This document shows, piece after piece, positions 1 to 10,642 of a DNA stretch of 10,642 nucleotides (the first letter of the stretch is position 1; the number at the start of each line of letters is the position of its first letter). The translations under genes were made by a program, and so were the position numbers. The DNA is from an uncultured archaeon (GTDB lineage: Archaea; Iainarchaeota; Iainarchaeia; Iainarchaeales; CSSED10-239). Below the pieces are notes generated by a model, which was given only the letters and a program-made list of their open reading frames with translations, was not told where the DNA came from and ran no database searches. The stretch lies in contig CAZPGO010000041.1 of the NCBI GenBank assembly GCA_964586355.1, positions 1-10,642 of the forward strand, in the 5' to 3' direction.

Positions 1-1863
1 GATTTAAGAGTAAATGGGTATCTTAAAAGATCAGGAAGAGATGATAAAAGATGTAATATTAGATCAAATATAAAAATAAACTTAGTAGATCAAGGAAGCA
101 CAAGTTATTCTCCTACCACAAACTGTAATAATATTAAAATATTTGCACCAAATATTTCTCAATTAGAAAACACCTTATCAAATTATGGAAAAGATAATGG
201 TTTTTTTATAGTTAATAACTCAAATCAAAAATTTACAATAAACCATCTTTTAATAAACGATAACACTAGTTATGCTGATTTAAAAATAAGCAATTATAGT
301 TCAGCAATCTATCCCTCCCAGACATTACCAATAAACTTTGAATTAACAACCAGAGAAGTAGCAACAACAGAAAGCACAAATGCAAAGATTGAAATTTCTG
401 GAAGATTTGATGATGGTACTGTTTGTAATTATTCAAATATTAATAAAACCTTTACAATAAATATTTTAGATACACAAGACAACTATTGTGGGTCTGTTGG
501 TGTTTTGTCTCAAAGAGTAAATGAAGGAAGATCTGATGTGGTTTTGTTTAATAATACTAGTAAAAAATTCTATGTAACAAACATACTATTTCAAGAAAAA
601 TATAAACTAGATGCAAGAATTGATACAACACAGCACACAATATCAAAAAACAGCTCATTATCTGTTCCTGTTAACTTTACTGGAGACGGATCATTACAAA
701 TGGTTATTTCTGGAAAATTTGAGGATGGAAAGACTTGTAATTATACTCAAACCACTTCTGGTGCTTTGAGTGTTAGTGGTAATCTTAATTATCCAACATA
801 TAATTTTTCAGAAAACAATTGTTCAATAGACTTAATTGCTCCAGCAAGTTATGAAATTGACGACGCTTTAGAAAAATTTGTTTTGTCTATAAAAAATTAT
901 AGTAAAAATTCAGGAAGAATAGTTATTTATAGTAACGGCGCAACAATAAATCCTGCAATTATTTATTTAGATGGATATGATAATTTTAATCAGGAATTGA
1001 CTTTATCAAATTTTAGTAATCCAACAGCAGTAAACTATTCTATTCAATTAAATAATTGTAATGCTTCTTTGAGAAGTACAACCTTAATTAATAAATTAAC
1101 AACAGATAATAGAATAGAACTAGTTTCATATCCCCAAAAATACACACCAGTAGATAACAAAATATTTTTTACTGTTCAAGTAAGAAATGATTTTTCACAA
1201 AATAAAAACATATTAATAAGATTAGCAGGATTTCCAAAAAATTGGGATCTGGATTCAAGAGATGTTTCTATAGATCAAAGAAGTTCACAAAATATTACAT
1301 TAACCGGAACAATACCAGCAGGAGCTGTTGGTGTTTATAATGGATATATAGAAATTTATGAAAATAATCAACTTGTTGATAGCAAGCCAATAGCAATAGA
1401 TCTAACAATTAAGGAATCAGATCTTTCTGTAAATAATAAAAAATTAGATCCAATAAGTAAATCTAATGGTTATCAATTAACCTTTACTCTAAAAAACAAC
1501 ACAACATTTAGAAAAGAAACAACCATCTCTTTTGATCTTGATGATTCTTGGATAGTTGATGGTGAAAAAAATATTGCTCTATTACCAGAAGAAACAAAAG
1601 AATTAACTTTTAGATTAATGCCAACAAATAAAGCAACAGATCAAAGCTTTAAAATAATTTTTAAAGAAAAAGGTACTGATAAAATATTGTTGGAGGAAAT
1701 AATAAATATTGAATCAAAAAAAGATTCATTTGGTTTAACTGGTTTTCTTGGTTTTGGTTCTAATAATTGGATTGGTTTTTTCATAGTTTTGATTATTGTT
1801 ATAATCATAGTAGTTTATGTTTTAAAAAAAAAGAGAAAAGCAAAAATGCAAAAATTAAATTAA
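1..1863 (+). CDS. Cell-surface repeat protein, 5'-truncated by the window edge, with C-terminal TM anchor
   Basis: Frame +1 is open from base 1 (my translation: DLRVNGYLKRSGRDDKRCNIRSNIKINLVDQGSTSYSPTTNCNNIKIFAPN...) and runs without a stop into ORF-track ORF 505..1863. The same repeat unit occurs on both sides of 505, so the TTG at 505 is an ORF-finder artefact. Stop TAA 1861-1863. Two C-terminal domains (about 1114-1416 and 1417-1710) carry a pattern (GFPKNWDLDSRDVSIDQRSSQNITLTGTIPAGAVGVYNGYIEI) that recalls NEW3/CARDB-like archaeal surface domains. Many N-x-S/T sequons. Confidence 0.85.
   Translation, partial: DLRVNGYLKRSGRDDKRCNIRSNIKINLVDQGSTSYSPTTNCNNIKIFAPNISQLENTLSNYGKDNGFFIVNNSNQKFTINHLLINDNTSYADLKISNYSSAIYPSQTLPINFELTTREVATTESTNAKIEISGRFDDGTVCNYSNINKTFTINILDTQDNYCGSVGVLSQRVNEGRSDVVLFNNTSKKFYVTNILFQEKYKLDARIDTTQHTISKNSSLSVPVNFTGDGSLQMVISGKFEDGKTCNYTQTTSGALSVSGNLNYPTYNFSENNCSIDLIAPASYEIDDALEKFVLSIKNYSKNSGRIVIYSNGATINPAIIYLDGYDNFNQELTLSNFSNPTAVNYSIQLNNCNASLRSTTLINKLTTDNRIELVSYPQKYTPVDNKIFFTVQVRNDFSQNKNILIRLAGFPKNWDLDSRDVSIDQRSSQNITLTGTIPAGAVGVYNGYIEIYENNQLVDSKPIAIDLTIKESDLSVNNKKLDPISKSNGYQLTFTLKNNTTFRKETTISFDLDDSWIVDGEKNIALLPEETKELTFRLMPTNKATDQSFKIIFKEKGTDKILLEEIINIESKKDSFGLTGFLGFGSNNWIGFFIVLIIVIIIVVYVLKKKRKAKMQKLN
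121..1068 (+). repeat. Three tandem, diverged protein-level repeats of about 80-120 aa (the third shortest), each starting with N-(N/Y)-C; the first two end with a G-(R/K)-F-(D/E)-D-G-x-x-C-N-Y motif
   Basis: Unit starts are NCNNIKIFAP at 121, NYCGSVGV at 481 and NNCSIDLIAP at 814, with NNCNAS at 1051. Unit ends are ISGRFDDGTVCNYSNINKTFTINI and ISGKFEDGKTCNYTQTTSGALSV. A further partial copy (VNGYLKRSGRDDKRCNIRSNIKINL) lies at bases 10-84, so the array continues upstream of the window. Confidence 0.7.
1768..1863 (+). other. C-terminal transmembrane anchor plus basic cytoplasmic tail
   Basis: WIGFFIVLIIVIIIVVYVL (1768-1824) is followed by KKKRKAKMQKLN and preceded by the Gly/Phe-rich GLTGFLGFGSNN. 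Confidence 0.8.
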
Positions 1864-1913
1864 ATGTTTGCTAATTGAAGTTAACTATTTCGGGTTAATC
1901 AAAGAAGCAAACC

Positions 1914-1921
1914 TTTAAATA
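1914..1921 (+). promoter_or_regulatory. TATA-box-like element (TTTAAATA) placed for a leaderless transcript of the protease gene
   Basis: The element is centred about 26-27 nt upstream of the A of ATG 1944, which is the canonical archaeal TATA-to-TSS distance. No Shine-Dalgarno-like motif lies between it and the ATG. The AT-rich background makes chance matches likely. Confidence 0.35.
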
Positions 1922-1943
1922 TATATTTTCTCTTAATATATTT

Positions 1944-2012
1944 ATGATCAAGAGAACTATTTTTTTATTTTCATTGATATTTCTATTTATGTTTTTAAAT
2001 CCTATTTTTGCA
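1944..2012 (+). other. Sec-type signal peptide of the protease
   Basis: Basic n-region (KR), a 17-residue hydrophobic core, then I-F-A followed by E (predicted cleavage after Ala23). Confidence 0.7.
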
Positions 2013-4778
2013 GAATCAACAAATCAAAATAATGTTTTTTCTGCTGGTGGTTTGGAAATTTATGGTAATAAAGATGATCTGATTTCATCTCATTTATCTC
2101 AAGACAACAACTTAGATCTGATATCATTAAGAAATAATAGAGTGGCAAGCAGTGTTCCGAATACAATGGGTAGTGCACCAAGAACAGGAGTCATAAATAT
2201 CCCTGTGTTATTTGTGAATTTTTCTGATGAGGCTCAAGATCCAGCAATTCCTCCATCGACATTTGATGATCTTTTTAATAGTTCTAATTATTTAAATGGT
2301 AATGGAATTAGTGTAAAAAAATATATTGAATCTCAATCATATTATAATGCAAGTTTAGGTCAAGGAGTAACTGTAAATTTTGTGATCTATCCAACCATAA
2401 GAACATTACCTCAAACAAGATCATTTTATACTCAATCAGGATCAATTGGATTAGTTGTAGTTCACGCAGTTCAAGCAAGTGACCCATATATTGATTTTTC
2501 ACAGTATGATGCAGATAATGATGGAAAAATGGATGGATTGATTGTTATAAGACCAGGCACACAATCTACGGCGTTATATTTGCCAACTGCAACCACCTGG
2601 GGTGCAAATTATAGTTATGTTTTTGATGGCAAAACACTAGGTAATTCATCAGTAATTCCTCAAAAAATAACTTCCACCGCTTGTTCTTCTGCACAAAATT
2701 ATGGGCACCCTGCCGATTGTAGACTTTCTACTATTATTGCAATACATGAGTTCATGCACGTTTTTGGTCTTCCTGATCTTTATGAGATTTGTAATGGTGC
2801 TCAGGTGGGCATGGGTTTAACTAATGCAAGTATGATGACTGTTAGTCGTCCTCCAAACAAACCAATCAATCTAGATCCATGGTCTAAGTTTTTTTTAGGT
2901 TGGGTTGATGCTATTGATGTTAATAGTTTAGATTATAGTAATTTTAATATTCCTTCTCCAGATAATAATAGAACCATTTTTATTTTAAGAAATAGTTCTA
3001 TGAACCCAAGAGAGTTTTTTATAGTAAGCAATCGTACAATTGTCTCAACCTCTCCAGACTATGGAATCCTTTGGCAACCAGGGTTTCCTCCATTTGGTGA
3101 TGGTGGTGTAGAGATCTATCATGTTGATGAGCAATATATTTCAGAGAAATATGTAATCAATGAGATCATGTGTGATCCTGATGGTCAATTTTATTCTGAT
3201 GCTGTATCTCATCCAGGCATTGTTTTTGAAAAAAATGTTATTTTTAATAGCACTTCTACTAGTTATGATTTAGGTTATCATAGTTTTTATTATAATGGAA
3301 CGTTTACTTATAATGGCACAACAATAAGTCAAAGTAATTTTGATGCCATTCAACGCCTGATTCCACCAAGTATTACTTTTGACGCCACCTCTAAATCTTA
3401 TAATGGTCAAGATACAAATATTGTTGTTCAAGCATTGACTGGTCCATCTTCAAATATGCCAGCAATATTAAAAGTGAAACCCGAAAGTCTTACACCAGAA
3501 GCCTCTGTTGTTGGTGGTCTTTATTATGCTCCAATTTCTGTTTCATTATCTACCACTCAACCAAACACAATTATTTATTATACAACAGATGGTTCAACAC
3601 CAACCTCTCAAAGTCAAGTTTACACAACACCTATTTCTGTAAATTCTAATACAACAATGACCATAAAAGCTAGAAGTTATGCTGATGGTTATTTACCAAG
3701 TCAAGTAATGACTCACACATATCAAGTAACCGGCACTGTGACGCCAGTTGTTTCTGATACTTCTAGTGGTGATCTTTATTTAGGTTCTTTGATCACTTTA
3801 AGTAATACCACTCTGGGTTCAACAATAAAATATACTCTTGATGGTAGTGATCCTACTCTTAGTTCTTTAACCTATGGCTCTCCAATAATTTTAAACAATG
3901 TTGGGCAAATCACTTTAAAGACAAGAGCCTTTTTAACCAATTGGCAACCAAGCGAGATATCTACATATAATTATAATGTTCTTGCTATTCCTGAAAATAA
4001 AATCTTAAGTTTTGGTTTTTTAAATGACATAAATATTTTAAATATGGTTATTGATCATGATCAAAATCTTGTAAATATTTATGTGCCATATAATAGTTAC
4101 ATTTCAGATTTAATTCCAGTAATTGTAATTTCAGAAAATGCAACCATTACTCCTGATCCTTCTATTCCACAAAATTTTTATAATAATCCAATTGAGTATA
4201 CAGTTACTTCATTATTAGGTTCAGAGCGCACCTATGTTGTAAGTGTTATTAGAAATCCAGCAGTAGAACCAGTAATTGTTAGTTTAGATAGTGGCAGTTA
4301 TTCTGGCCCACAGCAAATAACTTTATCAACTGCAACGCCTGGTGCTGTTATTAGATATACTCTTGATGGTTCTTATCCTTTATTATCTAGTCCAGCCTAT
4401 GTCGGTACACCAATAACAATAACAGACAGTTGTATCTTAAAAGCAAGAGCATACAAATATATCGGTCCAACTTTTGTTGCAGAAAGTATTGATGTTAGAT
4501 CTGCAAACACAAAATCTGATAATTCTAAATCAAACAACAACTCTTCAAAAAATATTCCAAATGTTACTCCTGCAAGCATTGTTTGGTTAACAAGTTATGA
4601 TAGTGTAAGAGAGTATGAAATTACAAGAGGAATAACTGAAACAATAATTTCAGAAAGAATATCAAGAAATAGTAATTCAAAAAATGAAAGAGAAAAACCC
4701 AAACCAGAAAAACAAGAAGTTATAACTTCAAATGAGGGTAAAGTGAATAATTCTGGATTATCGAAATCCAGGGATTAA
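1944..4778 (+). CDS. Secreted M6-family (immune inhibitor A-like) zinc metalloprotease with three C-terminal chitobiase-C-terminal-like modules
   Basis: 944-aa ORF. N-terminal Sec-type signal MIKRTIFLFSLIFLFMFLNPIFA|E. The catalytic region (about 2178-3135) has FSQYDADNDGKMDGLIVI, HEFMHVFGLPDLY (HExxH at 2745-2759) and LDPWSKFFLGWVD. As I recall, these match the M6 domain signature (InhA: HEFGHDLGLPDEY; ..WSK..LGW). No TM anchor. The tail is K/S/N/E-rich and low in complexity (about 4497-4775). Confidence 0.8.
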   Translation: MIKRTIFLFSLIFLFMFLNPIFAESTNQNNVFSAGGLEIYGNKDDLISSHLSQDNNLDLISLRNNRVASSVPNTMGSAPRTGVINIPVLFVNFSDEAQDPAIPPSTFDDLFNSSNYLNGNGISVKKYIESQSYYNASLGQGVTVNFVIYPTIRTLPQTRSFYTQSGSIGLVVVHAVQASDPYIDFSQYDADNDGKMDGLIVIRPGTQSTALYLPTATTWGANYSYVFDGKTLGNSSVIPQKITSTACSSAQNYGHPADCRLSTIIAIHEFMHVFGLPDLYEICNGAQVGMGLTNASMMTVSRPPNKPINLDPWSKFFLGWVDAIDVNSLDYSNFNIPSPDNNRTIFILRNSSMNPREFFIVSNRTIVSTSPDYGILWQPGFPPFGDGGVEIYHVDEQYISEKYVINEIMCDPDGQFYSDAVSHPGIVFEKNVIFNSTSTSYDLGYHSFYYNGTFTYNGTTISQSNFDAIQRLIPPSITFDATSKSYNGQDTNIVVQALTGPSSNMPAILKVKPESLTPEASVVGGLYYAPISVSLSTTQPNTIIYYTTDGSTPTSQSQVYTTPISVNSNTTMTIKARSYADGYLPSQVMTHTYQVTGTVTPVVSDTSSGDLYLGSLITLSNTTLGSTIKYTLDGSDPTLSSLTYGSPIILNNVGQITLKTRAFLTNWQPSEISTYNYNVLAIPENKILSFGFLNDINILNMVIDHDQNLVNIYVPYNSYISDLIPVIVISENATITPDPSIPQNFYNNPIEYTVTSLLGSERTYVVSVIRNPAVEPVIVSLDSGSYSGPQQITLSTATPGAVIRYTLDGSYPLLSSPAYVGTPITITDSCILKARAYKYIGPTFVAESIDVRSANTKSDNSKSNNNSSKNIPNVTPASIVWLTSYDSVREYEITRGITETIISERISRNSNSKNEREKPKPEKQEVITSNEGKVNNSGLSKSRD
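2745..2759 (+). other. HExxH zinc-binding / catalytic motif (HEFMH)
   Basis: Codons cat gag ttc atg cac in the ORF frame, immediately followed by VFGLPDLY. Confidence 0.8.
3513..4496 (+). repeat. Three CHB_HEX_C / Fn3-associated-like beta-sandwich modules (3513-3728, 3762-3980, 4290-4496), interrupted by a different beta-sandwich module (3993-4250)
   Basis: Shared pattern: I-(S/T)-L-S..(5-6)..I-(I/K/R)-Y-T-(T/L)-D-G-S-x-P...S..Y..PI......(I/L)-K-(A/T)-R-(A/S)-(Y/F). Examples are IIYYTTDGSTPTSQSQVYTTPI...IKARSY, IKYTLDGSDPTLSSLTYGSPI...LKTRAF and IRYTLDGSYPLLSSPAYVGTPI...LKARAY. Modules 2 and 3 share a 16-nt identity, atatactcttgatggt. Confidence 0.65.
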
Positions 4779-4800
4779 TTTATAAACTTAATTAATTATA

Positions 4801-4807
4801 TTTTTTT
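4801..4807 (+). terminator. Oligo-T (T7) tract downstream of the protease stop codon
   Basis: Seven consecutive T begin 23 nt after the TAA at 4776-4778. Archaeal RNA polymerase terminates at oligo-T tracts. Weak specificity in AT-rich DNA. Confidence 0.35.
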
Positions 4808-4831
4808 ATTGACATTATAATTATAAAATTA

Positions 4832-4840
4832 GGAAGTGAT
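4832..4840 (+). promoter_or_regulatory. Shine-Dalgarno-like site GGAAGTGAT upstream of the giant pilin-like gene
   Basis: Matches the complement of the generic archaeal 16S 3' end (GGAGGTGAT) at 8 of 9 positions. The GTGA core ends 6 nt before TTG 4846. The same spacing occurs at L4, L23 and L2 (see findings). Confidence 0.5.
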
Positions 4841-4845
4841 GAATT

Positions 4846-4944
4846 TTGATAAATATGAATAAAAAAGGGCAAATTGCAATAGAAATATTAGTTGTTTTAT
4901 CGATCTTAGTTATTGGCGGTATTTTTGTTGGAGTATATTATATC
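4846..4944 (+). other. Class III signal peptide / pilin-like N-terminal helix
   Basis: Short basic leader M(INM)NKKG, Gly at -1 (4867-4869), Gln at +1 (4870-4872), Glu at +5, then about 20 uninterrupted hydrophobic residues. This is the pattern processed by archaeal prepilin peptidases (PibD/FlaK/EppA). Q at +1 is typical of the DUF361 / Class_IIIsignal pilins of Methanococcus. Confidence 0.7.
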
Positions 4945-7900
4945 CAAGGAATTGGACAAAATCAACAAAAAGGAGCCACAACAAATTCAACTTTAGATTC
5001 TTTAGTTGATAATTTTACGGATCCATTTGATATTCCAGATAATACAGATGTTCCATTAAATAAAGTTGCAGCACCTGTTGCAATTCCATCAGAAGGTTTT
5101 TATCCTTACGGCACTTTAATTACATTAATATCTCACACAGATGATGCGATAATAAGATACAAACTTAATAGTGCTGATGTAAATGAATCATCGCCAATTT
5201 TTCCAAATAATTTTTATTTAACAGAAGATGTTCAAATATCAGCAGTTGCTTATAAGACTGGAATGGAACCAAGTTCAAAAGTTAAATTTACTTATACTGT
5301 AAATACAGTAATCGCAGCTTTTTTTACTGATATTCAAGTTGATGAAACTGCTCTGCCAACAGGGGTTGTGGCAGGCGCACCATTTACTTTGAAAGTTGTG
5401 GCAGAAGCAACTGTTCCATCTGTAAGATTATCCGAAGTAAGAATTAGCCAAAATGATGTTCCTACATCTGCTTGTAAATTTTTAGGTGTTGGTGCTGTTG
5501 GTAAAGATATTACTTGTACTAATGGTTCTTGTACAGATCTAGGTTATTTAACTAACCCAGAAGTTGCAGGTACAAGTTATTATAATAATTTTAAATTTTC
5601 TTGTAGTGAACCAGGATCCTATAGTTTTATATTTACTGGTGTCTTAAAAACAGAAGATAAAGAATATTCGCATATGACTTCTTCTCAATCAATTGTAATT
5701 GCACCACCAACACCAAACACAATTGTTGCAGAAATTATTTCTCCTCAAGATGGTTTATATTATAAAGATAAACCACTTATTTTGTCTTCAAACATAATTG
5801 GAGCAGAAAAAGAAGATGTTTTTTGTAATTGGTATGCAACAAGTAAAGAATCACAAGCAAGTTTATTTTTAAGTGATAATTGTGATGCTTTATATGACTT
5901 ATCTAATTCTGCTGATTTTGAAGTAGATAAAACATATGAAATAAATTTGTTTGTTTCTTCAAGATATGAAGATATTTCTGTTGCGGCAAATCCAAAAGTA
6001 ATTACAATTGTAGATTTTGAAAATTCAGATTATTTATTTTTTAAACCAGGTAGCGGTCAAGAAATGAATCAAACATTTGAAATGTATTTTTATACATCAA
6101 GAATTGCTGATTTTGAACAAGGCGGTTATTTTGATGTTCACGATTCCGATAATCATTGTAATTTTGAATTAACACGTGCAGCTCCTGAGCAACATGAGTT
6201 TGTTGATCCGGTTACTAGTGAAATTACTTATTATTATTCATATACTTTTAATTCTATTTGTAATGCCCCTGGCACAAAAACAATAACTGTTGAGTTTTTT
6301 CAACCAGATTTGCCAGAAGGAAAAGGCGAAGTTTTACCAGTAAGTTCTGTTACTACGACATATTTGATTTATGATGTGGTGCCTTTTGTTGATGTTGAAT
6401 TTGGAATATATTTTAATACTGGTCCAGCACTTCCATCAATGACCGAGGTATTTGATGAAGCATTGATCGTGAAAGGAAAAGAATCTTATTCAGATGAATT
6501 TTATTTTGCGGCACCATATCCTCCGAACCCAACAGCTTTTGTAGATATTTATCAAGGTCAGGAATTTTATATTTATCCATCAATTATATCAAACCCTCCA
6601 CAATATTTAGATGGTCAAGGAATTTGTACTGTTAAATTTACCCCTATGGCTTCAAATCCAGAAGGTAAACTACAAATTTATCAACAACCATGTAATCAAT
6701 ATAAAGGTTATCAAATCACAAAGTTAATTGGAGAATATAATGCACAATTATCTGTTACCGGGCCAAATGGGATGAGCTTTAGTAAAAGCAAATTAGTGCG
6801 TTTTAATACAAATCCGATATATTTTATTAACGATAATGTTTATCCAATTTATTATAAGGACAATAGTTTCCAAATAGAATTAGCAATTTCTAATCTGAAT
6901 AATTTATCGTTAACCGTTACAAATGATATATATAAAACTACAGACACATCCACAGCAGTTTCTTATATTTCTGCAATAACAGGAACATTACGTTTTTCTG
7001 GTGTTTTTGATCCTATGGAAGGATATGTTTTAATTAATTCATCTACATTTGCTTGTAATTCCTCAAATTCAATTTGTACAAATAATTATCAATTCTCAGA
7101 ATCTGGAAACTATAGAGTAAAAATTACTGCAACTACTCCATACGGAAATCAAGTAATAAAATGGGTTAATTTTAAAATTGTAGAGGAACCAGATGGTGCA
7201 GAAATTAGTTATGTTATAAGTAAAACACCAACAAATGTGGGTTTAACTGGATTATTATATAGGACCGTTGGTGCTAATACCTACTATAAGATAGGAGATT
7301 TTTGTGTTTGGAATATAGCTGGACAAATAATCAGAGGTAGTTGTAATATTACTCACAATTTTTCAACATTTGGTCCAAAAAATGTATCTGTTATTGTTTC
7401 TGAACAATCCGGAACACCAATTGCACAAGATGCAACAGCAATAATAAATATAGTGTCTCCACCACCAATTAATTCAAAGATCATTGCTGATAATCCAAAT
7501 TTATCTCTTGTTGTTGGAGAAAGCCGTGAATTCTTTGCTGGTTTTGAGTATCCAATAGGTGGTGGTGAAATTAAGTTTATTCAAGCCACAAGTTGTGCAG
7601 ATTATTGGTATGTTGAAGGAGTTCCATTCTACAATTATGGTTCCTGTCATTTTGATCATGAATTTAATGTGCCAGGAATATTTGAAATTTCTGCAATGAT
7701 TAATAACCCAGATGGAACACAGACAGAAGTTCTAACTTATGTAACTGTTTCAGAATCTCAAATTCTTGATCCTGTAAGTTATGGTGCTCAATGTACGTTA
7801 TATTATGATCCTGGCAACCCAGGAAATCCTAGTGATGCTTGTAAAATATATCAAATTGATTTCCAAGGTGGTGCTCGTCTGAATACACATGCAACTCATT

Positions 7901-8175
7901 TTAGATATAACTTTGTATTAAGAAATTCAAACAATCAACCAATTCATCAAACGGTTGGGGTATATAATCCATCAAAGTTAGCTAATGTTATTTCAGAATA
8001 TGATTACAAAAAAATAGATTTGGATTATATCGATTTAGTTGTGCCGTTATCCACGAGTATAAACACAGGTGGGAATTTACCATATACTTTTTGGATAGAG
8101 AACAACAATAATCAAAATGATTATACTGAGCAAAGTGGTGTAATTCAATGTTCTGTTATTCCGGGTTGTCCATGA
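4846..8175 (+). CDS. Giant (about 1100 aa) multidomain surface protein with an archaeal class III (type IV pilin-like) signal peptide
   Basis: Long ORF with stop TGA 8173-8175. The start is either TTG 4846 (favoured by SD spacing) or ATG 4855 (MNKKGQ...). N-terminus KKG|QIAIEILVVLSILVIGGIFVGVYYI. Then one CHB_HEX_C-like module, PPTP and SPPP linkers (5701-5715, 7456-7467) and multiple beta-sandwich domains, several of them PKD-like. 20 Cys residues, all in close pairs. Confidence 0.88.
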   Translation: MINMNKKGQIAIEILVVLSILVIGGIFVGVYYIQGIGQNQQKGATTNSTLDSLVDNFTDPFDIPDNTDVPLNKVAAPVAIPSEGFYPYGTLITLISHTDDAIIRYKLNSADVNESSPIFPNNFYLTEDVQISAVAYKTGMEPSSKVKFTYTVNTVIAAFFTDIQVDETALPTGVVAGAPFTLKVVAEATVPSVRLSEVRISQNDVPTSACKFLGVGAVGKDITCTNGSCTDLGYLTNPEVAGTSYYNNFKFSCSEPGSYSFIFTGVLKTEDKEYSHMTSSQSIVIAPPTPNTIVAEIISPQDGLYYKDKPLILSSNIIGAEKEDVFCNWYATSKESQASLFLSDNCDALYDLSNSADFEVDKTYEINLFVSSRYEDISVAANPKVITIVDFENSDYLFFKPGSGQEMNQTFEMYFYTSRIADFEQGGYFDVHDSDNHCNFELTRAAPEQHEFVDPVTSEITYYYSYTFNSICNAPGTKTITVEFFQPDLPEGKGEVLPVSSVTTTYLIYDVVPFVDVEFGIYFNTGPALPSMTEVFDEALIVKGKESYSDEFYFAAPYPPNPTAFVDIYQGQEFYIYPSIISNPPQYLDGQGICTVKFTPMASNPEGKLQIYQQPCNQYKGYQITKLIGEYNAQLSVTGPNGMSFSKSKLVRFNTNPIYFINDNVYPIYYKDNSFQIELAISNLNNLSLTVTNDIYKTTDTSTAVSYISAITGTLRFSGVFDPMEGYVLINSSTFACNSSNSICTNNYQFSESGNYRVKITATTPYGNQVIKWVNFKIVEEPDGAEISYVISKTPTNVGLTGLLYRTVGANTYYKIGDFCVWNIAGQIIRGSCNITHNFSTFGPKNVSVIVSEQSGTPIAQDATAIINIVSPPPINSKIIADNPNLSLVVGESREFFAGFEYPIGGGEIKFIQATSCADYWYVEGVPFYNYGSCHFDHEFNVPGIFEISAMINNPDGTQTEVLTYVTVSESQILDPVSYGAQCTLYYDPGNPGNPSDACKIYQIDFQGGARLNTHATHFRYNFVLRNSNNQPIHQTVGVYNPSKLANVISEYDYKKIDLDYIDLVVPLSTSINTGGNLPYTFWIENNNNQNDYTEQSGVIQCSVIPGCP
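5089..5301 (+). other. CHB_HEX_C / Fn3-associated-like module in the pilin-like protein, homologous to the three in the protease
   Basis: SEGFYPYGTLITLISHTDDAIIRYKLNSADVNESSPIFPNNFYLTEDVQISAVAYKTGMEPSSKVKFTYTV aligns position for position with the protease modules (ITL.S....IIRY.L......S..) and ends Y.V. Confidence 0.6.
5728..7749 (+). repeat. Series of degenerate Ig/PKD-like beta-sandwich domains, one Cys pair per domain
   Basis: The clearest PKD-like cores are CVWNIAGQIIRGSCNITHNFSTFGPKNVSVIVSEQSG...INIV (7303-7455), CADYWYVEGVPFYNYGSCHFDHEFNVPGIFEISAMINNPDGTQTEVLTYVTV (ends 7749), NNYQFSESGNYRVKITATTPYGN (about 7080-7150) and FCNWYATSKE...YEINLFVSS (about 5820-5960). Compare the PKD consensus W.FGDG....H.Y...G.Y.V.L.V.D..G. 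Confidence 0.5.
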
Positions 8176-8191
8176 TTGAATTAAGGTAAAA

Positions 8192-8218
8192 AGATAAGAT
8201 ATCCTCTTATCTCTTTTT
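8192..8218 (+). terminator. Hairpin plus T5 tract 17 nt after the giant gene's stop codon
   Basis: AGATAAGA (8192-8199) and TCTTATCT (8205-8212) form a perfect 8-bp stem with a 5-nt loop (TATCC), followed by C and TTTTT (8214-8218). Confidence 0.55.
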
Positions 8219-8305
8219 AAACCTTTCGCCACCATAATTATTCTTACATGTATTAGTTATATAATATATGAGTAACAAGTAAATTACCGTTACTGTAGAC
8301 TGTAT

Positions 8306-8355
8306 GTTAACAAACTTTTTAAAAAAGATCTAAACTTTTTTTTAAAAAAAGTTAA
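8306..8355. repeat. Two adjacent A/T palindromes of the form AAAC-T(n)-A(n)-G, flanked by GTTAA(C/T)
   Basis: First palindrome: CTTTTT a AAAAAG (8315-8327). Second: AACTTTTTTT t AAAAAAAGTT (8333-8353, 10-bp arms). AAACTTTTT is directly repeated at 8312 and 8332. GTTAAC lies at 8306-8311 and GTTAA at 8351-8355. The T8 run (8336-8343) could also act as a termination signal. Confidence 0.6.
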
Positions 8356-8362
8356 TATATAA

Positions 8363-8400
8363 ATGCAGAGATTCTAAAAAATCTTTTTCTGCATGTTTTT
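8363..8400 (+). terminator. Second hairpin followed by a T5 tract
   Basis: ATGCAGA (8363-8369) pairs with TCTGCAT (8388-8394). An inner GATT/AATC pairing (8370-8373 / 8380-8383) is possible. Followed by G and TTTTT (8396-8400). Confidence 0.4.
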
Positions 8401-8422
8401 AAAAAAATTAAATTAAAATATA

Positions 8423-8430
8423 TTTATATA
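8423..8430 (+). promoter_or_regulatory. Candidate TATA box (TTTATATA) for the ribosomal protein operon
   Basis: Best TATA consensus match in the A/T-rich stretch 8401-8475. It would place the TSS near 8453, about 23 nt before ATG 8476. Several alternative A/T octamers nearby are equally possible. Confidence 0.3.
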
Positions 8431-8475
8431 TATCATAAATTAAAAAATAACACACAAAAATAAAAAAAGATTATT

Positions 8476-9468
8476 ATGGGTAAAACAAATAAACCAAGAG
8501 CAGGATCAATGAGCTTTTATCCTAGAGTAAGAGCAAAATCCATTATTCCAAAGTTTAATTCTTTTGTAAGTCCACAAAAAGTAGGAATAACTGGAGTAAA
8601 GCCAATGTGTTTCTATGTCTTTAAAGCAGGAACCACACACGTTATTGCAAAAAATGCAAAAAAAGGCGCATCTTCTTATGGTCAAGAAAACTCTATTTCT
8701 GTTAGTGTGTTAGAAGCACCAGATATGAAAGTTATTGGAGCTAGATTTTATAAAGAAAATTTTCCTACAAAAGGTAAAACTGCTATCTTTGAATTTAGTA
8801 ATCAAGATAGTTTAGTTAAAAAAAGAATTTCTGGAAAAAAACAAAAAAAAATAACTCCTTTAGAAGAAGCTTTAAAAAGAAAAGATGAAGCAGACTCTTT
8901 AGTTTTATTAGCAACAGTTAATCCAGACAAAACAACAGTTGGTCAAAAAAAGCCAGTTATTGTTGAAGTTCCTTTATCTGGAACTTATGAAGAACAGATC
9001 AACTATTTAAAAGAAAAATTAAACAAAACTATTTCAGTTTCAGAAGTATTTGATATTGAAACAGTTTTAGATGTTAAAGGAGTAACCATTGGTCATGGAA
9101 CACAAGGACCAGTAAAAAGATTTGGCATAAAGATTCAAAGACCAAAGGCTCAAAAAATACAAAGACATGTAGGATCTATCAACCCATGGCATCCTGCAAC
9201 AGTAATGTATACTATTCCTAGAGCAGGTCAATATGGTTTCCATAATAGAACAACATTTAATAAAAAATTGTTAATGATTGACGAGGATACCTCAAAAATA
9301 AATCCAAAAAAAGGATTTATAAACTATGGTTTAGTAAAAAACAAATATCTGTTAGTTGCAGGATCTGTACCTGGTCCAACAAAAAGAATATTAGCTCTAA
9401 GACACACAATTAGAGAAAAACCAAAAACAAAATTAGAAGTAACCGATATAAATTACATCTCAAAATAA
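8476..9468 (+). CDS. rpl3: 50S ribosomal protein L3 (archaeal uL3)
   Basis: N-terminus MGKTNKPRAGSMSFYPRVRAKS matches the archaeal L3 start (MGK..RPRRGSL.F.PRKRA). Internal FKAGTTHV, GVTIGHGTQGPVKRFG and PWHPATV...RAGQYGFHNRT motifs are present. 330 aa is a typical length, and the gene sits first in the L3-L4-L23-L2 order. Confidence 0.95.
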   Translation: MGKTNKPRAGSMSFYPRVRAKSIIPKFNSFVSPQKVGITGVKPMCFYVFKAGTTHVIAKNAKKGASSYGQENSISVSVLEAPDMKVIGARFYKENFPTKGKTAIFEFSNQDSLVKKRISGKKQKKITPLEEALKRKDEADSLVLLATVNPDKTTVGQKKPVIVEVPLSGTYEEQINYLKEKLNKTISVSEVFDIETVLDVKGVTIGHGTQGPVKRFGIKIQRPKAQKIQRHVGSINPWHPATVMYTIPRAGQYGFHNRTTFNKKLLMIDEDTSKINPKKGFINYGLVKNKYLLVAGSVPGPTKRILALRHTIREKPKTKLEVTDINYISK

Positions 9469-9498
9469 TGTTATTTTAAAAATAAAAACTGATCTACA

Positions 9499-10308
9499 AT
9501 GAAAGCAAATGTTTATGATTTAGACGGAAAAGTAGTAAAAGAAATAGAACTACCTGTAGAAGTATTTAATGAAGAATATAGACCAGACTTGATAAAGAAA
9601 GCAGTAATTTCACAACAATCAAATTCTTATCAAAAGAAAGGTAATTCTCCATATTCTAATAGAGACAATACAGCAATCTATATTGGTATTAGAAAAGCAA
9701 ACCATGCAAATATTACTATTAATTCAGGACACGCAAGACTTCCAAGACTAAAAAATAGAAGAGTTTTAATGGCTGGAAGAGTTATGGGTGTTTCTCAAGC
9801 TGTTGGTGGACCAAGGGCTCACCCTCCAAAAACCACTAAAAATCTTATTAAAAAAATAAACTCAAAAGAAAGAACAAAGGCAATTCTTTCTGCAATATCT
9901 GCAACCACTAATCCAAAATTAGTAAGTGGTCGTGGACATATTATTAATGAAAATATGACTTTGCCAGTTATTTTTGATAATAGCCTAGAAGCAATGACAA
10001 AAACTAAAGAAGTATTAACAACTTTAGAAAAAATAGGCTTAGATAAAGATATCTTAAAAGCAAAAGAAAAAAAATCAGTAAGAGCTGGTAAAGGAAAATA
10101 TAGAGGAAGAAGATACAAGAAAAGAAAAAGTCTTTTAGTAATCCTTTCAGATGGAAAAAACAAAAAAGCTTTTACTAACCTAGAAGGTGTTGATGTAATT
10201 TCAGCAAAAAGACTTTCTATTAAAGATCTTGCACCAGGAACACATGCTGGAAGATTAACAATATTTAGTGAAGGGGCAATCTCAGAACTTAAAAAAAGAT
10301 TTGAATAA
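9499..10308 (+). CDS. rpl4: 50S ribosomal protein L4 (archaeal uL4)
   Basis: MKANVYDLDGKVVKEIELPVEVFNEEYRPDLIKKAVISQQSN matches the archaeal L4 N-terminal pattern (V.dl.G......eLP..F....R.DLI.rAV). Also GGPRAHPPK and a basic KGKYRGRRYKKRKS loop. Synteny between L3 and L23. Confidence 0.93.
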   Translation: MKANVYDLDGKVVKEIELPVEVFNEEYRPDLIKKAVISQQSNSYQKKGNSPYSNRDNTAIYIGIRKANHANITINSGHARLPRLKNRRVLMAGRVMGVSQAVGGPRAHPPKTTKNLIKKINSKERTKAILSAISATTNPKLVSGRGHIINENMTLPVIFDNSLEAMTKTKEVLTTLEKIGLDKDILKAKEKKSVRAGKGKYRGRRYKKRKSLLVILSDGKNKKAFTNLEGVDVISAKRLSIKDLAPGTHAGRLTIFSEGAISELKKRFE

Positions 10309-10321
10309 ATGTGAATTGATT

Positions 10322-10594
10322 ATGACTAATACTTTAGAATATTACCAGGTAATTGAATACCCTGTAATTACTGAAAAAACAGTAAATCTTATCTCAGCAG
10401 ATAACAAGATAACATTTGTTGTTAACAAAGTAGCAAAAAAAAGCGAAATAAAATCAGCTGTTGAGAAGCTATATAATGTTAAAGTAGAATCTGTTAACAT
10501 ATTATTTGATAGAAAAAACAGAAAAAAAGCATTCGTTAAACTAAAAAAAGGTTTTAATGCTCAAGATCTAGCAAACAAACTAGGAATATTATAA
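10322..10594 (+). CDS. rpl23: 50S ribosomal protein L23 (archaeal uL23)
   Basis: Contains I.YPVITEK. .NLI...NK.TF.V...A.K.EIK.AVE.LY.VKV..VN, the L23 signature. I place the start at ATG 10322, giving 90 aa (a typical length) with a GTGA motif 7 nt upstream. The ORF-track GTG 10268 would overlap the L4 3' end by 41 nt. Confidence 0.9.
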   Translation: MTNTLEYYQVIEYPVITEKTVNLISADNKITFVVNKVAKKSEIKSAVEKLYNVKVESVNILFDRKNRKKAFVKLKKGFNAQDLANKLGIL

Positions 10595-10607
10595 AATGTG
10601 ATATTTT

Positions 10608-10642
10608 ATGGGTAGACGTTTAAAAATACAGAGACGTGGAAA
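10608..10642 (+). CDS. rpl2: 50S ribosomal protein L2 (archaeal uL2), N-terminal 11 codons only, truncated by the window end
   Basis: ATG 10608 followed by MGRRLKIQRRG(K), compared with the archaeal L2 N-terminus MG(K/R)R(I/L)..Q.RGRG. Correct synteny after L23, with GTGAT 6 nt upstream. Confidence 0.8.
   Translation, partial: MGRRLKIQRRG

Follow-up and report, generated by a model that had tools for sequence, protein, structure and literature searches.

The S-layer glycoprotein of Haloferax volcanii reportedly carries a PGF-CTERM signal and is a substrate of the archaeosortase ArtA, in work said to be that of Haft et al. in 2012 and of Abdul Halim et al. Secreted peptidases of the M6 family (MEROPS M6; TIGR03296, PF05547) include immune inhibitor A (InhA) of Bacillus and PrtV of Vibrio. 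Hypervariable surface-protein islands distinguish near-identical strains of Haloquadratum walsbyi and of marine bacteria, and exchange of C-terminal parts is known from phage tail fibres and polymorphic toxins. To our knowledge, partner recognition and attachment in DPANN archaea are mostly unknown, with few candidate determinants at the gene level. Here we analyse a locus of an uncultured archaeon, contained in 10,642 nucleotides of contig CAZPGO010000041.1 (GCA_964586355.1; hereafter the window), in which three open reading frames (ORF1, ORF2 and ORF3) stand in front of the ribosomal protein genes rpl3, rpl4 and rpl23. Bacterial 'modular pilins' serve as a type for comparison with ORF3. We propose that the locus consists of a gene for an S-layer-like, probable archaeosortase substrate (ORF1) followed by a hypervariable cassette slot for proteins with a pilin-type signal, which an M6 protease such as ORF2 often accompanies; we put the probability of this reading at roughly 0.65.

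For the S-layer glycoprotein of H. volcanii, a tripartite signal and its processing by ArtA have been documented, and archaeosortases have been placed in a subset of Euryarchaeota (PMC6098224). Large adhesin-like proteins have been described from archaeal type IV filament loci (bioRxiv 10.64898/2026.04.22.720090).

Results

A strain-variable slot in front of rpl3

The window has a G+C content of ~30% and carries three large ORFs on the plus strand, followed by archaeal rpl3, rpl4 and rpl23; no further ORF of at least 80 amino acids is present in it, save one antisense ORF within rpl4. ORF1, ORF2 and ORF3 are real genes, because of their length in AT-rich DNA and because homologues exist for all of them. 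A preliminary description of the window had reported three consecutive co-directional genes, 80 and 67 nt apart, beside the core ribosomal operon of a small-genome archaeon, and this agrees with our coordinates: the ORF1–ORF2 spacer is 80 nt, and the ORF2–ORF3 spacer is 67 nt with a TTG start for ORF3 or 76 nt with an ATG start. The ribosomal operon runs on for more than 20 genes in L004, L007 and L036 (L-numbers denote related contigs or loci used for comparison, the fetched archaeal loci totalling 231 kb) and is the right anchor of the locus. The features are given below by position, strand and content; statements on promoters and terminators derive only from motif inspection and conservation, in an archaeal host.

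1..1863, plus strand: ORF1, the 3' 620 codons of an envelope protein of ~990 amino acids, its 5' end cut by the contig end
1732..1863, plus strand: tripartite, sorting-signal-like tail of ORF1 (motif, transmembrane helix, KKKRKAK)
1912..1925, plus strand: element CCTTTAAATATATA, resembling a TATA box and B recognition element (BRE), 19–32 nt 5' of the ORF2 ATG
1944..4778, plus strand: ORF2, M6-like zinc metalloprotease of 944 amino acids
4855 (ATG) or 4846 (TTG)..8175, plus strand: ORF3, 1106 or 1109 amino acids, with a class III (prepilin-like) signal
4855..5958, plus strand: conserved N-terminal module of ORF3 (signal, CHB_HEX_C_1 and following domains)
5959..8165, plus strand: hyperdivergent distal two thirds of ORF3, orphan, with weak PKD-like signatures
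8192..8218, plus strand: terminator-like hairpin and T5, right boundary of the slot
8200..8310, strand unassigned: conserved non-coding block between ORF3 and rpl3
8476–9468, 9499–10308 and ~10322–10594, plus strand: rpl3, rpl4 and rpl23, start of the ribosomal protein operon (Pfam and NCBIfam equivalog matches)

The gene in front of rpl3 differs between strains that are nearly identical beyond it. Contig L036 and the window-type contig L001 derive from one JGI sample. Beginning at position 8210, L036 matches the window at 98% identity, and its rpl4 and rpl3 products are 100% and 98.5% identical to those of the window. The gene 5' of its rpl3 is not ORF3; it encodes a CHB_HEX_C_1 domain, an Ig-like domain (36% identical to ORF3 residues 107–264) and GGLxG (Glug-like) repeats ending in NNGYPYLRNNPPN. 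Seven further contigs (among L037–L044) encode an rpl3 protein at least 90% identical to that of the window, at 92.5–94% identity in DNA (92.5–94.7% for L037–L044). Among nine related contigs, homology to the window starts at 8206–8213 in L036–L039 and L041–L044, with one contig beginning at 8290. The slot is occupied by a Hint/intein-like gene in L037, L038, L039, L041 and L042 and by a Glug gene in L044, and L043 has no assembled upstream gene. Three cassette types were found at this reproducible right junction between conserved flanks. The earlier view that ORF3 sits in the conserved chromosomal backbone therefore does not stand, as unrelated proteins replace it in strains 92.5–98% identical at rpl3. 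Many independent assemblies end inside or just past the slot, which is expected of a population-variable region.

The cassette junction falls within a hairpin, AGATAAGA-tatcc-TCTTATCT, that is followed by T5 at the end of ORF3 (8192–8218), and the alternative cassettes each have a hairpin and T-run of their own at the same position. The block at 8200–8310 is 96–100% identical to L007 (96% over 118 nt), compared with ~84% in the flanking genes. Common to all strains are CTTTTTAAACCTTT (8213–8226) and TTACTGTAGACTGTATGTTAACA (8290–8312); the ~65 nt between them exist in two versions, one in the window and L007 and the other in the Glug and Hint strains, and these versions track the cassette type, not the rpl3 flank. 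The block is not a tRNA, has no Rfam match and no significant fold on either strand, and only chance mini-ORFs of 23–52 amino acids occur in it and in the ORF3–rpl3 spacer. Candidate roles for it are those of a small RNA, of a leader or regulator of the operon, and of a recombination arm. Two other candidate explanations were tried for the window and rejected: a diversity-generating retroelement target, since the window has no reverse transcriptase ORF and no repeats resembling a template/variable repeat (TR/VR) pair, and a mobile element, since it has no integrase, transposase or tRNA.

Comparison with the more divergent contig L007 (rpl3 and rpl4 proteins 89% and 87% identical to those of the window) places a second boundary within ORF3. 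DNA similarity is 84–85% over 1–5958 and 8166–10642, and blastn detects none over 5959–8165. The two ORF3 proteins are 71–88% identical over residues 1–400 and 27–41% over residues 401–1106, and the ORF2–ORF3 spacer is 94% conserved. Non-synonymous divergence (dN) in the distal part is 0.55–0.85, against a background synonymous divergence (dS) of 0.53–0.67 in ORF1, ORF2, rpl3 and rpl4; this part of ORF3, two thirds of the protein, evolves at roughly the pace of silent sites. ORF3 (8162–8175), its 50%-identical homologue in L007 and an unrelated Hint protein (L029:16700–16759) all end in C-x(5-6)-C-P, which may be a shared C-terminal disulfide or processing motif.

The locus in more distant relatives

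It had been asked whether the three genes would be found together beside rpl3 in related genomes. This held for L007 and L008 (~84% DNA identity), which have the trio in the same order, and L045 has ORF1 and then M6, where its contig ends; it did not hold for L024/L027, L029, L031, L033 or L009–L011. At the next level of divergence, where ORF1 is ~40% identical, the ORF1 homologue keeps its place and the content 5' of rpl3 differs:

L024 and L027: four class III-signal proteins of 913–1148 amino acids (PARCEL/DUF285 or Glug-like repeats), then M6
L029: a class III fragment of 150 amino acids, M6, a class III protein of 555 amino acids, a pretoxin-HINT protein of 680 amino acids (L029:14717–16759), a protein of 94 amino acids, then rpl3
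L031: two small proteins with class III signal and CHB_HEX
L033: a class III Glug protein of 566 amino acids, a protein of 109 amino acids and an RCC1-repeat protein

Hint and pretoxin-HINT proteins thus occur in the slot of other strains and lineages, and some cassettes may be self-cleaving or toxin-like.

In L028 the M6 homologue lies at another chromosomal place, after rps2 and TrmB and between class III proteins of 105 and 582 amino acids, with no ORF1 homologue near it. In L009–L011 (rpl3 39–43% identical) the gene abutting rpl3 encodes an ORF1-like protein of 627–640 amino acids, whose repeats resemble those of ORF1 (blastp to 1e-11) and which has both a signal peptide and a C-terminal transmembrane helix; neither an M6 nor a class III protein is present.

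The M6 homologue directly adjoins a class III-signal protein in all four archaeal contexts examined. When the 231 kb were searched in six frames with a strict class III pattern ([KR][GA][QA]xxxE plus a hydrophobic helix, with at least 80 residues following), 13 occurrences were obtained, ORF3 and 12 others; every one lies in the slot or flanks the M6 gene of L028, and none elsewhere. CHB_HEX_C_1 modules are common to the class III proteins and M6, the domain of ORF3 being 45% identical to one in the M6 protein of L028. Across these loci it is the ORF1 family that keeps its position, class III proteins frequently have M6 beside them, and the trio as such is lineage-specific.

The host is an Iainarchaeota-like archaeon of DPANN type with a small genome, its nearest named relatives being 'Candidatus (I)ainarchaeum sp.'. 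The ORF1 homologues come from sources named 'Candidatus ainarchaeum sp.' or 'archaeon', and the genus Iainarchaeum belongs to the DPANN phylum Iainarchaeota. A scan of GTDB genomes with rpl3 reached only distant relatives, at 43% identity or less, and a metagenome scan with an ORF1 profile yielded six loci.

ORF1 and an archaeosortase-family gene near it in relatives

Nine homologues of ORF1, all of ~960–990 amino acids, were found among 5.8e9 proteins, and no Pfam or NCBIfam family matched it. The full-length homologue in L007 (993 amino acids, 80% identity) has an N-terminal Sec-type signal. The AlphaFold2 model of ORF1 (confidence score, pLDDT, 72.7) shows all-beta tandem domains and a terminal helix at 591–619, and a Foldseek search with it returned generic tandem Ig-like, MG and ASH proteins only, with no specific S-layer match. 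An internal repeat at 394–432/706–744, spaced by 312 nt, gives a domain period of ~104 amino acids. ORF1 is apparently a single gene at a fixed locus across relatives. We read ORF1 as an S-layer-like protein and a probable archaeosortase substrate.

The C-terminus of ORF1 reads ...GLTGFLGFGSNNW-IGFFIVLIIVIIIVVYVL-KKKRKAKMQKLN and has the short motif, hydrophobic helix and basic cluster of a tripartite signal, a layout known from substrates of sortases, exosortases and archaeosortases, with the H. volcanii S-layer glycoprotein as the paradigm. The one hydrophobic segment in the part of ORF1 within the window (residues 582–612) is followed by KKKRKAK, and the motif L-T-G-F-L-x-x-G (T580 G581 F582 ... 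G586) comes directly before the transmembrane helix; among 10 ORF1 family members, G581, F582 and G586 are invariant and T580, L583 and L585 nearly so. The distant homologues of L009–L011 have the same layout of xGF/xGL, transmembrane helix and charged tail. The best-scoring sorting models were GG_III-CTERM, Heimdall-CTERM and LPXTG, at 13–14 bits (E ~0.04). The transmembrane helix and basic tail had been taken for a plain membrane anchor; both are present, but from the sequence a cleavable archaeosortase-type sorting signal is more likely than a simple anchor.

In L007, L023, L024, L029, L031 and L045 the ORF1 homologue is preceded by a constant series of genes, in the order rpS8e, an archaeosortase-family polytopic protein of 184–193 amino acids, a basic protein, an opposite-strand coiled-coil gene and the ORF1 homologue itself. 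The series was found in every relative with upstream DNA, the archaeosortase-family gene lying three genes 5' of the ORF1 homologue (L007 ~2000–2580; L023 8028–8582; L024 8275–8832; L029 4072–4626; L031 6930–7481). The 184–193-residue protein passes the exosortase/archaeosortase signature TIGR04178 in L007, L023 and L024 (36–40 bits, cutoff 23), and its Cys98, Arg140, His160 and Arg165 are invariant, L029 and L031 included. It matches the family signature, not ArtA–E, and gives a weak match to the 'pacearchaeosortase' model of NCBIfam; it may stand for a DPANN subfamily of archaeosortases, as yet undescribed, whose sorting signal is of the xGF type. The source annotation of L007 and L045 had missed this gene.

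Three further observations concern the 5' side of ORF1. Independent assemblies of the window strain (L001, L002, L003 and L034) all end within ~30–220 nt of one point in ORF1, and its N-terminal third may be another population-variable or repeat-rich stretch. In full-length homologues the N-terminal ~150 amino acids (L007:4028–4500) are Tyr-rich, with sequences such as YGNYYDNV, YYYPNIFYLQPPYTGYQ and YVSGYPTYYYPAEP, and are conserved across the family. In the distant loci L009, L010 and L011 conserved polytopic membrane proteins (L009:1032–1922; L010:8–847; L011:6878–7795 and 6028–6717), one of them DUF4013, and not the archaeosortase neighbourhood, precede the ORF1-like gene.

ORF3, a class III signal protein with a divergent distal part

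The ATG at 4855 sits behind a Shine-Dalgarno-like sequence, GGAAGTGATG, which is conserved in a relative, and because of this ribosome-binding-like site it is the likelier start of ORF3 than the TTG at 4846. The N-terminus that follows, MNKK-G|QIAIE, has a short charged N-region with Lys at −2, Gly at −1 and Gln at +1, the signal continuing after MNKK-G as QIAIEILVVLSILVIGGIFVGVYYI, with a hydrophobic helix of 25 residues (signal and helix, nt 4855–4944). The combination of Lys −2, Gly −1 and Gln +1 is that of archaeal substrates of signal peptidase III (SPase III; PMC3387779).

A CHB_HEX_C_1 domain occupies residues 78–141 (nt 5086–5277). A word-index search found three homologues of ORF3 among 5.8e9 proteins. 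Close relatives aside, an exhaustive HMMER search returned homologues of residues ~70–290 only, so that ~800 residues are orphan sequence. Beyond residue ~290, Pfam segment scans and a PDB profile search gave no recognisable domain except a sub-threshold PKD signal. The AlphaFold2 model, built with only two homologues, has a pLDDT of 34.7 and is unusable.

ORF2, an M6-like protease

ORF2 has an N-terminal hydrophobic signal at residues 4–25 (signal peptide 1–23), no other transmembrane segment and a charged low-complexity tail without an anchor. The catalytic domain (residues 88–373, nt 2205–3062) aligns with 280 of the 286 positions of the M6 model TIGR03296 (E 4.8e-25, 89 bits; curated cutoff 110.8). 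PF05547 is not reported for ORF2 itself, though precomputed for many of its homologues. The zinc motif HEFMHVFGLPD (residues 268–278, nt 2745–2777) is intact and fits HEXXHXXGXXD; HExxH(x5)D is present in 112 of 119 ORF2 homologues and in all archaeal neighbours (L007, L027, L028 and L029). Three CHB_HEX_C_1/Fn3_assoc domains and a DUF5018-like domain follow at residues ~524–850 (nt 3513–4493). We found 215 homologues of ORF2, many of them named M6 or carrying PF05547, and a PDB sequence search gave no relative beyond a DUF5018-like match.

The element CCTTTAAATATATA in front of ORF2 is identical in L007 save one base, and the rest of the ORF1–ORF2 spacer varies. By motif resemblance in AT-rich DNA it could be a promoter of ORF2's own, and its conservation in L007 makes obligatory co-transcription of ORF1 and ORF2 doubtful.

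The family combining M6 with CHB_HEX_C_1 also occurs in Cloacimonadota and Bacteroidales bacteria, including a 2.27-Mb bacterial contig (homologues P0008, P0013 and P0016). Some bacterial homologues are 41–43% identical over 65–74% of ORF2, compared with 32–33% for the M6 proteins of related archaeal lineages, and the G+C content is 0.33–0.35 in the ORF2 region and 0.27–0.30 in its flanks. Since the family is shared with Cloacimonadota and the G+C of ORF2 is higher, these features are consistent with an inter-domain transfer of the protease.

Taken together, the three proteins are exported or surface proteins with three different targeting devices, as the preliminary description had it. Its Sec signal without anchor for ORF2 is borne out; its M6 assignment agrees with the intact zinc site, at a model score below the curated cutoff, and its class III signal for ORF3 agrees with the residue pattern, where curated models give weak support. 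Its account of all three as rich in N-x-S/T sequons and beta-sandwich repeats applies in full to ORF1 only. There sequons exceed expectation (z 2.65; 3.4 for the full-length homologue; scores are against shuffles of each protein's own composition) and AlphaFold and Foldseek bear out the fold; sequons are marginal in ORF2 (z 1.2) and not enriched in ORF3 (z −0.25), which beyond residue ~290 lacks recognisable domains.

Discussion

What the sequences show is how the genes are built, which domains and motifs they encode, their synteny, the replacement of cassettes and how divergence is distributed. From this the following picture of archaeosortase processing, S-layer role, pilus display, adhesion and protease targets can be drawn. 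ORF1 would be a Sec-exported, probably N-glycosylated string of Ig-like domains; an archaeosortase-family enzyme would cut off its tail and link the remaining protein to a lipid, just as the S-layer glycoprotein of Haloferax is handled by ArtA, and ORF1 would then form the major coat (S-layer-like) protein. The slot between ORF1 and the rpl3 operon holds genes for secreted proteins, most of them sharing a class III signal and a CHB_HEX_C_1 domain just after the N-terminal helix. A prepilin peptidase would cleave ORF3, whose N-terminal helix would then anchor the protein in the membrane or insert it into a fibre resembling a type IV pilus. The proximal ~370 residues of ORF3, which are conserved, may act as a stalk and the fast-evolving, exchangeable distal ~740 residues as the exposed ligand-binding or antigenic part. 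ORF2 would be a soluble M6 zinc protease that may stay attached to this cell surface or act on targets in common with the slot proteins; its substrate might lie on that surface, in a partner's envelope or in an environmental protein. An 'attachment and breach' role of the trio, as formerly suggested, would be pure conjecture.

Several results weigh against this proposal. For ORF1, codon usage was uninformative: by a codon adaptation index referred to ribosomal genes, ORF1, ORF2 and ORF3 all looked like ordinary genes. No curated C-terminal sorting model matched the ORF1 tail at cutoff and its motif is T/S-G-F, not PGF, for which reasons we say that the tail works like that of an archaeosortase substrate and claim no membership. 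The archaeosortase gene lies outside the window, and as the upstream DNA of the window strain is unassembled, the enzyme is known from relatives only. For ORF3, the scores against TIGR04205 (19.5 bits, cutoff 65) and PF07963 N_methyl (14.3 bits, cutoff 21.2, E 0.03) are below cutoff and PF04021 did not match; no prepilin peptidase and no pilus ATPase or platform gene is among the genes of the fetched loci. For the slot, the left junction is seen only between the window and L007, at 5958, the contigs of the 93–98% identical strains breaking there. Lastly, that M6 recurs beside class III proteins in four lineages points to closer functional coupling than would be expected of genes that are purely loose neighbours.

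The proposal can be carried further, to a version that we consider unlikely. In Iainarchaeota-like DPANN archaea the gap that separates the coat gene from the rpl3 operon may be dedicated to the exchange of cassettes, with recombination arms formed on the left by the class III/CHB_HEX_C_1 stalk and on the right by the ultra-conserved 8200–8310 block. The swapped, exposed heads, belonging to giant proteins displayed on pili or tethered to the membrane, would determine the specificity for a host or partner, or would help the cell to evade viruses. M6 would be their functional partner, maturing the giant proteins or breaching the partner's envelope. If this is true, an uncultivated symbiont lineage would have in this slot a determinant of its host range that is compact and genetically defined; if the cassettes are ordinary variable surface proteins, the slot is one more flexible island, useful and unsurprising.

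The rival that survives best, improbable as we take it to be, is that functionally unrelated envelope and nutrition genes (a coat, a feeding protease and a pilin-like protein) have gathered in a recombination-tolerant gap between conserved operons. The variable content of the slot would fit, and the wide occurrence of the M6+CHB_HEX_C_1 family, Cloacimonadota included, suggests transfer of a generic secreted protease, in line with the G+C content of the ORF2 region above that of its flanks. It does not sit well with a class III protein directly beside M6 in four lineages, even after relocation, with the confinement of class III motifs to these places within the 231 kb, or with the CHB_HEX_C_1 domain that protease and class III proteins share.

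Some of the same facts favour a dedicated, co-evolving three-component system for host interaction, with an anchor layer, a long-reach adhesin and a breaching protease conserved as a backbone unit, for which we see a somewhat smaller chance still. The trio beside rpl3 in L007 and L008, the ORF1–M6 order of L045, the conserved ORF2–ORF3 spacer, the CHB_HEX_C_1 modules of both ORF2 and ORF3 and the adjacency of M6 and class III proteins in 4 of 4 contexts, the relocated L028 among them, would all be expected of such a unit. They are countered by the differing slot contents of L024/L027, L029, L031 and L033, the replacement of ORF3 where the flanks are 92.5–98% identical, the ORF1-like gene without either partner in L009–L011, the M6 gene of L028 with no ORF1 homologue nearby and the apparent promoter-like element that ORF2 has to itself.

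That the cassettes are competition effectors of the polymorphic-toxin kind, with a conserved N-terminal delivery part and an exchangeable C-terminal effector as in Rhs and contact-dependent inhibition (CDI) systems, is very unlikely, even with Hint or pretoxin-HINT proteins in the slot of L029, L037, L038, L039, L041 and L042 and the conserved N-terminal and divergent C-terminal parts of ORF3 meeting at sharp DNA boundaries. The divergent part of ORF3 is ~740 residues long, collinear at 27–41% identity, and contains beta-strand, PKD-like modules and not a short toxin domain; no toxin domain was detected, and no small immunity-like ORF follows ORF3, the spacer holding only the chance ORFs mentioned above. 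An assembly or binning artefact is barely credible as the source of cassette replacement: the evidence is drawn entirely from contigs of short-read metagenomes, and the slot or its vicinity is where many of them end, but the 8206–8213 junction and the alternative gene types recur in independent JGI, ENA and Logan assemblies, the terminator-like hairpin of every cassette joins the shared block in register, and L007 and the window are contiguous over the whole locus.

With a coat gene and a variable slot as the preferred reading, each component is of a known kind (archaeosortase substrate, M6 peptidase, class III surface protein), and variable-island behaviour is known as well. In the literature searched we found no description of this locus or of a pairing of M6 and class III proteins in DPANN archaea; the arrangement of coat gene, class III/CHB_HEX_C_1 slot and rpl3 operon, and the recurrent M6/class III pairing in DPANN, appear to be undescribed. 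NCBIfam already contains a 'pacearchaeosortase' model, and ORF1 adds, from a DPANN lineage, a coat protein that is probably processed by an archaeosortase. The slot, being small, sharply delimited and filled with different giant class III proteins in near-identical strains, is a natural candidate for a determinant of specificity or antigenic variation, and the recurrent pairing of these proteins with an M6 protease is testable. The slot also breaks metagenome assemblies beside ribosomal-protein markers that are used for phylogeny and binning.

Comparison with known systems

ORF1 and the H. volcanii S-layer glycoprotein have in common a Sec signal, tandem Ig-like domains, sequons and a C-terminus composed of motif, transmembrane helix and basic tail, and the relatives of the window strain, like H. 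volcanii, encode an archaeosortase-family protein with conserved Cys, Arg and His. They differ in the motif, L-T/S-G-F in place of P-G-F, and in the host, a DPANN archaeon and not a member of the Euryarchaeota. The enzyme is short (184–193 amino acids) and is encoded three genes from its presumed substrate, processing and an S-layer role being predictions in this lineage.

ORF2 resembles the M6 peptidases InhA and PrtV in its HEXXHXXGXXD site, its secreted multidomain build, its Ig-like accessory domains and its nearly full alignment with the M6 model. It differs from them in scoring below the NCBIfam trusted cutoff without a PF05547 match, in its three CHB_HEX_C_1 domains and DUF5018-like domain, in being archaeal and in its recurrent class III neighbours.

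ORF3 shares with archaeal class III or pilin-like proteins a short basic N-terminus, Lys at −2, Gly at −1, Gln at +1, Glu at +5 and a helix, followed by large globular or Ig-like modules. With 1106 amino acids, however, it is far above the size of a structural pilin, lies outside a pilus-machinery locus in the loci fetched, has a distal part of 740 residues without homologues and is encoded in a strain-variable slot. TIGR04205, a class III protein that occurs with archaeosortase D/PIP-CTERM, is a precedent in the databases for class III-signal proteins that go with an archaeosortase system; the N-termini of ORF3 and two of its neighbours score 17–21 bits against its cutoff of 65, the model describes a protein of 67 residues and the archaeosortase found here is not ArtD.

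The slot as a whole is closest to flexible genomic islands, having conserved flanks (93–98%), unrelated or divergent surface genes, sharp boundaries and assemblies that break there. Unlike these islands it is small (3–13 kb), lies between a coat gene and the main ribosomal operon and shows no integrase, tRNA or transposase, and what its cassettes have in common is the class III signal together with the CHB_HEX_C_1 module.

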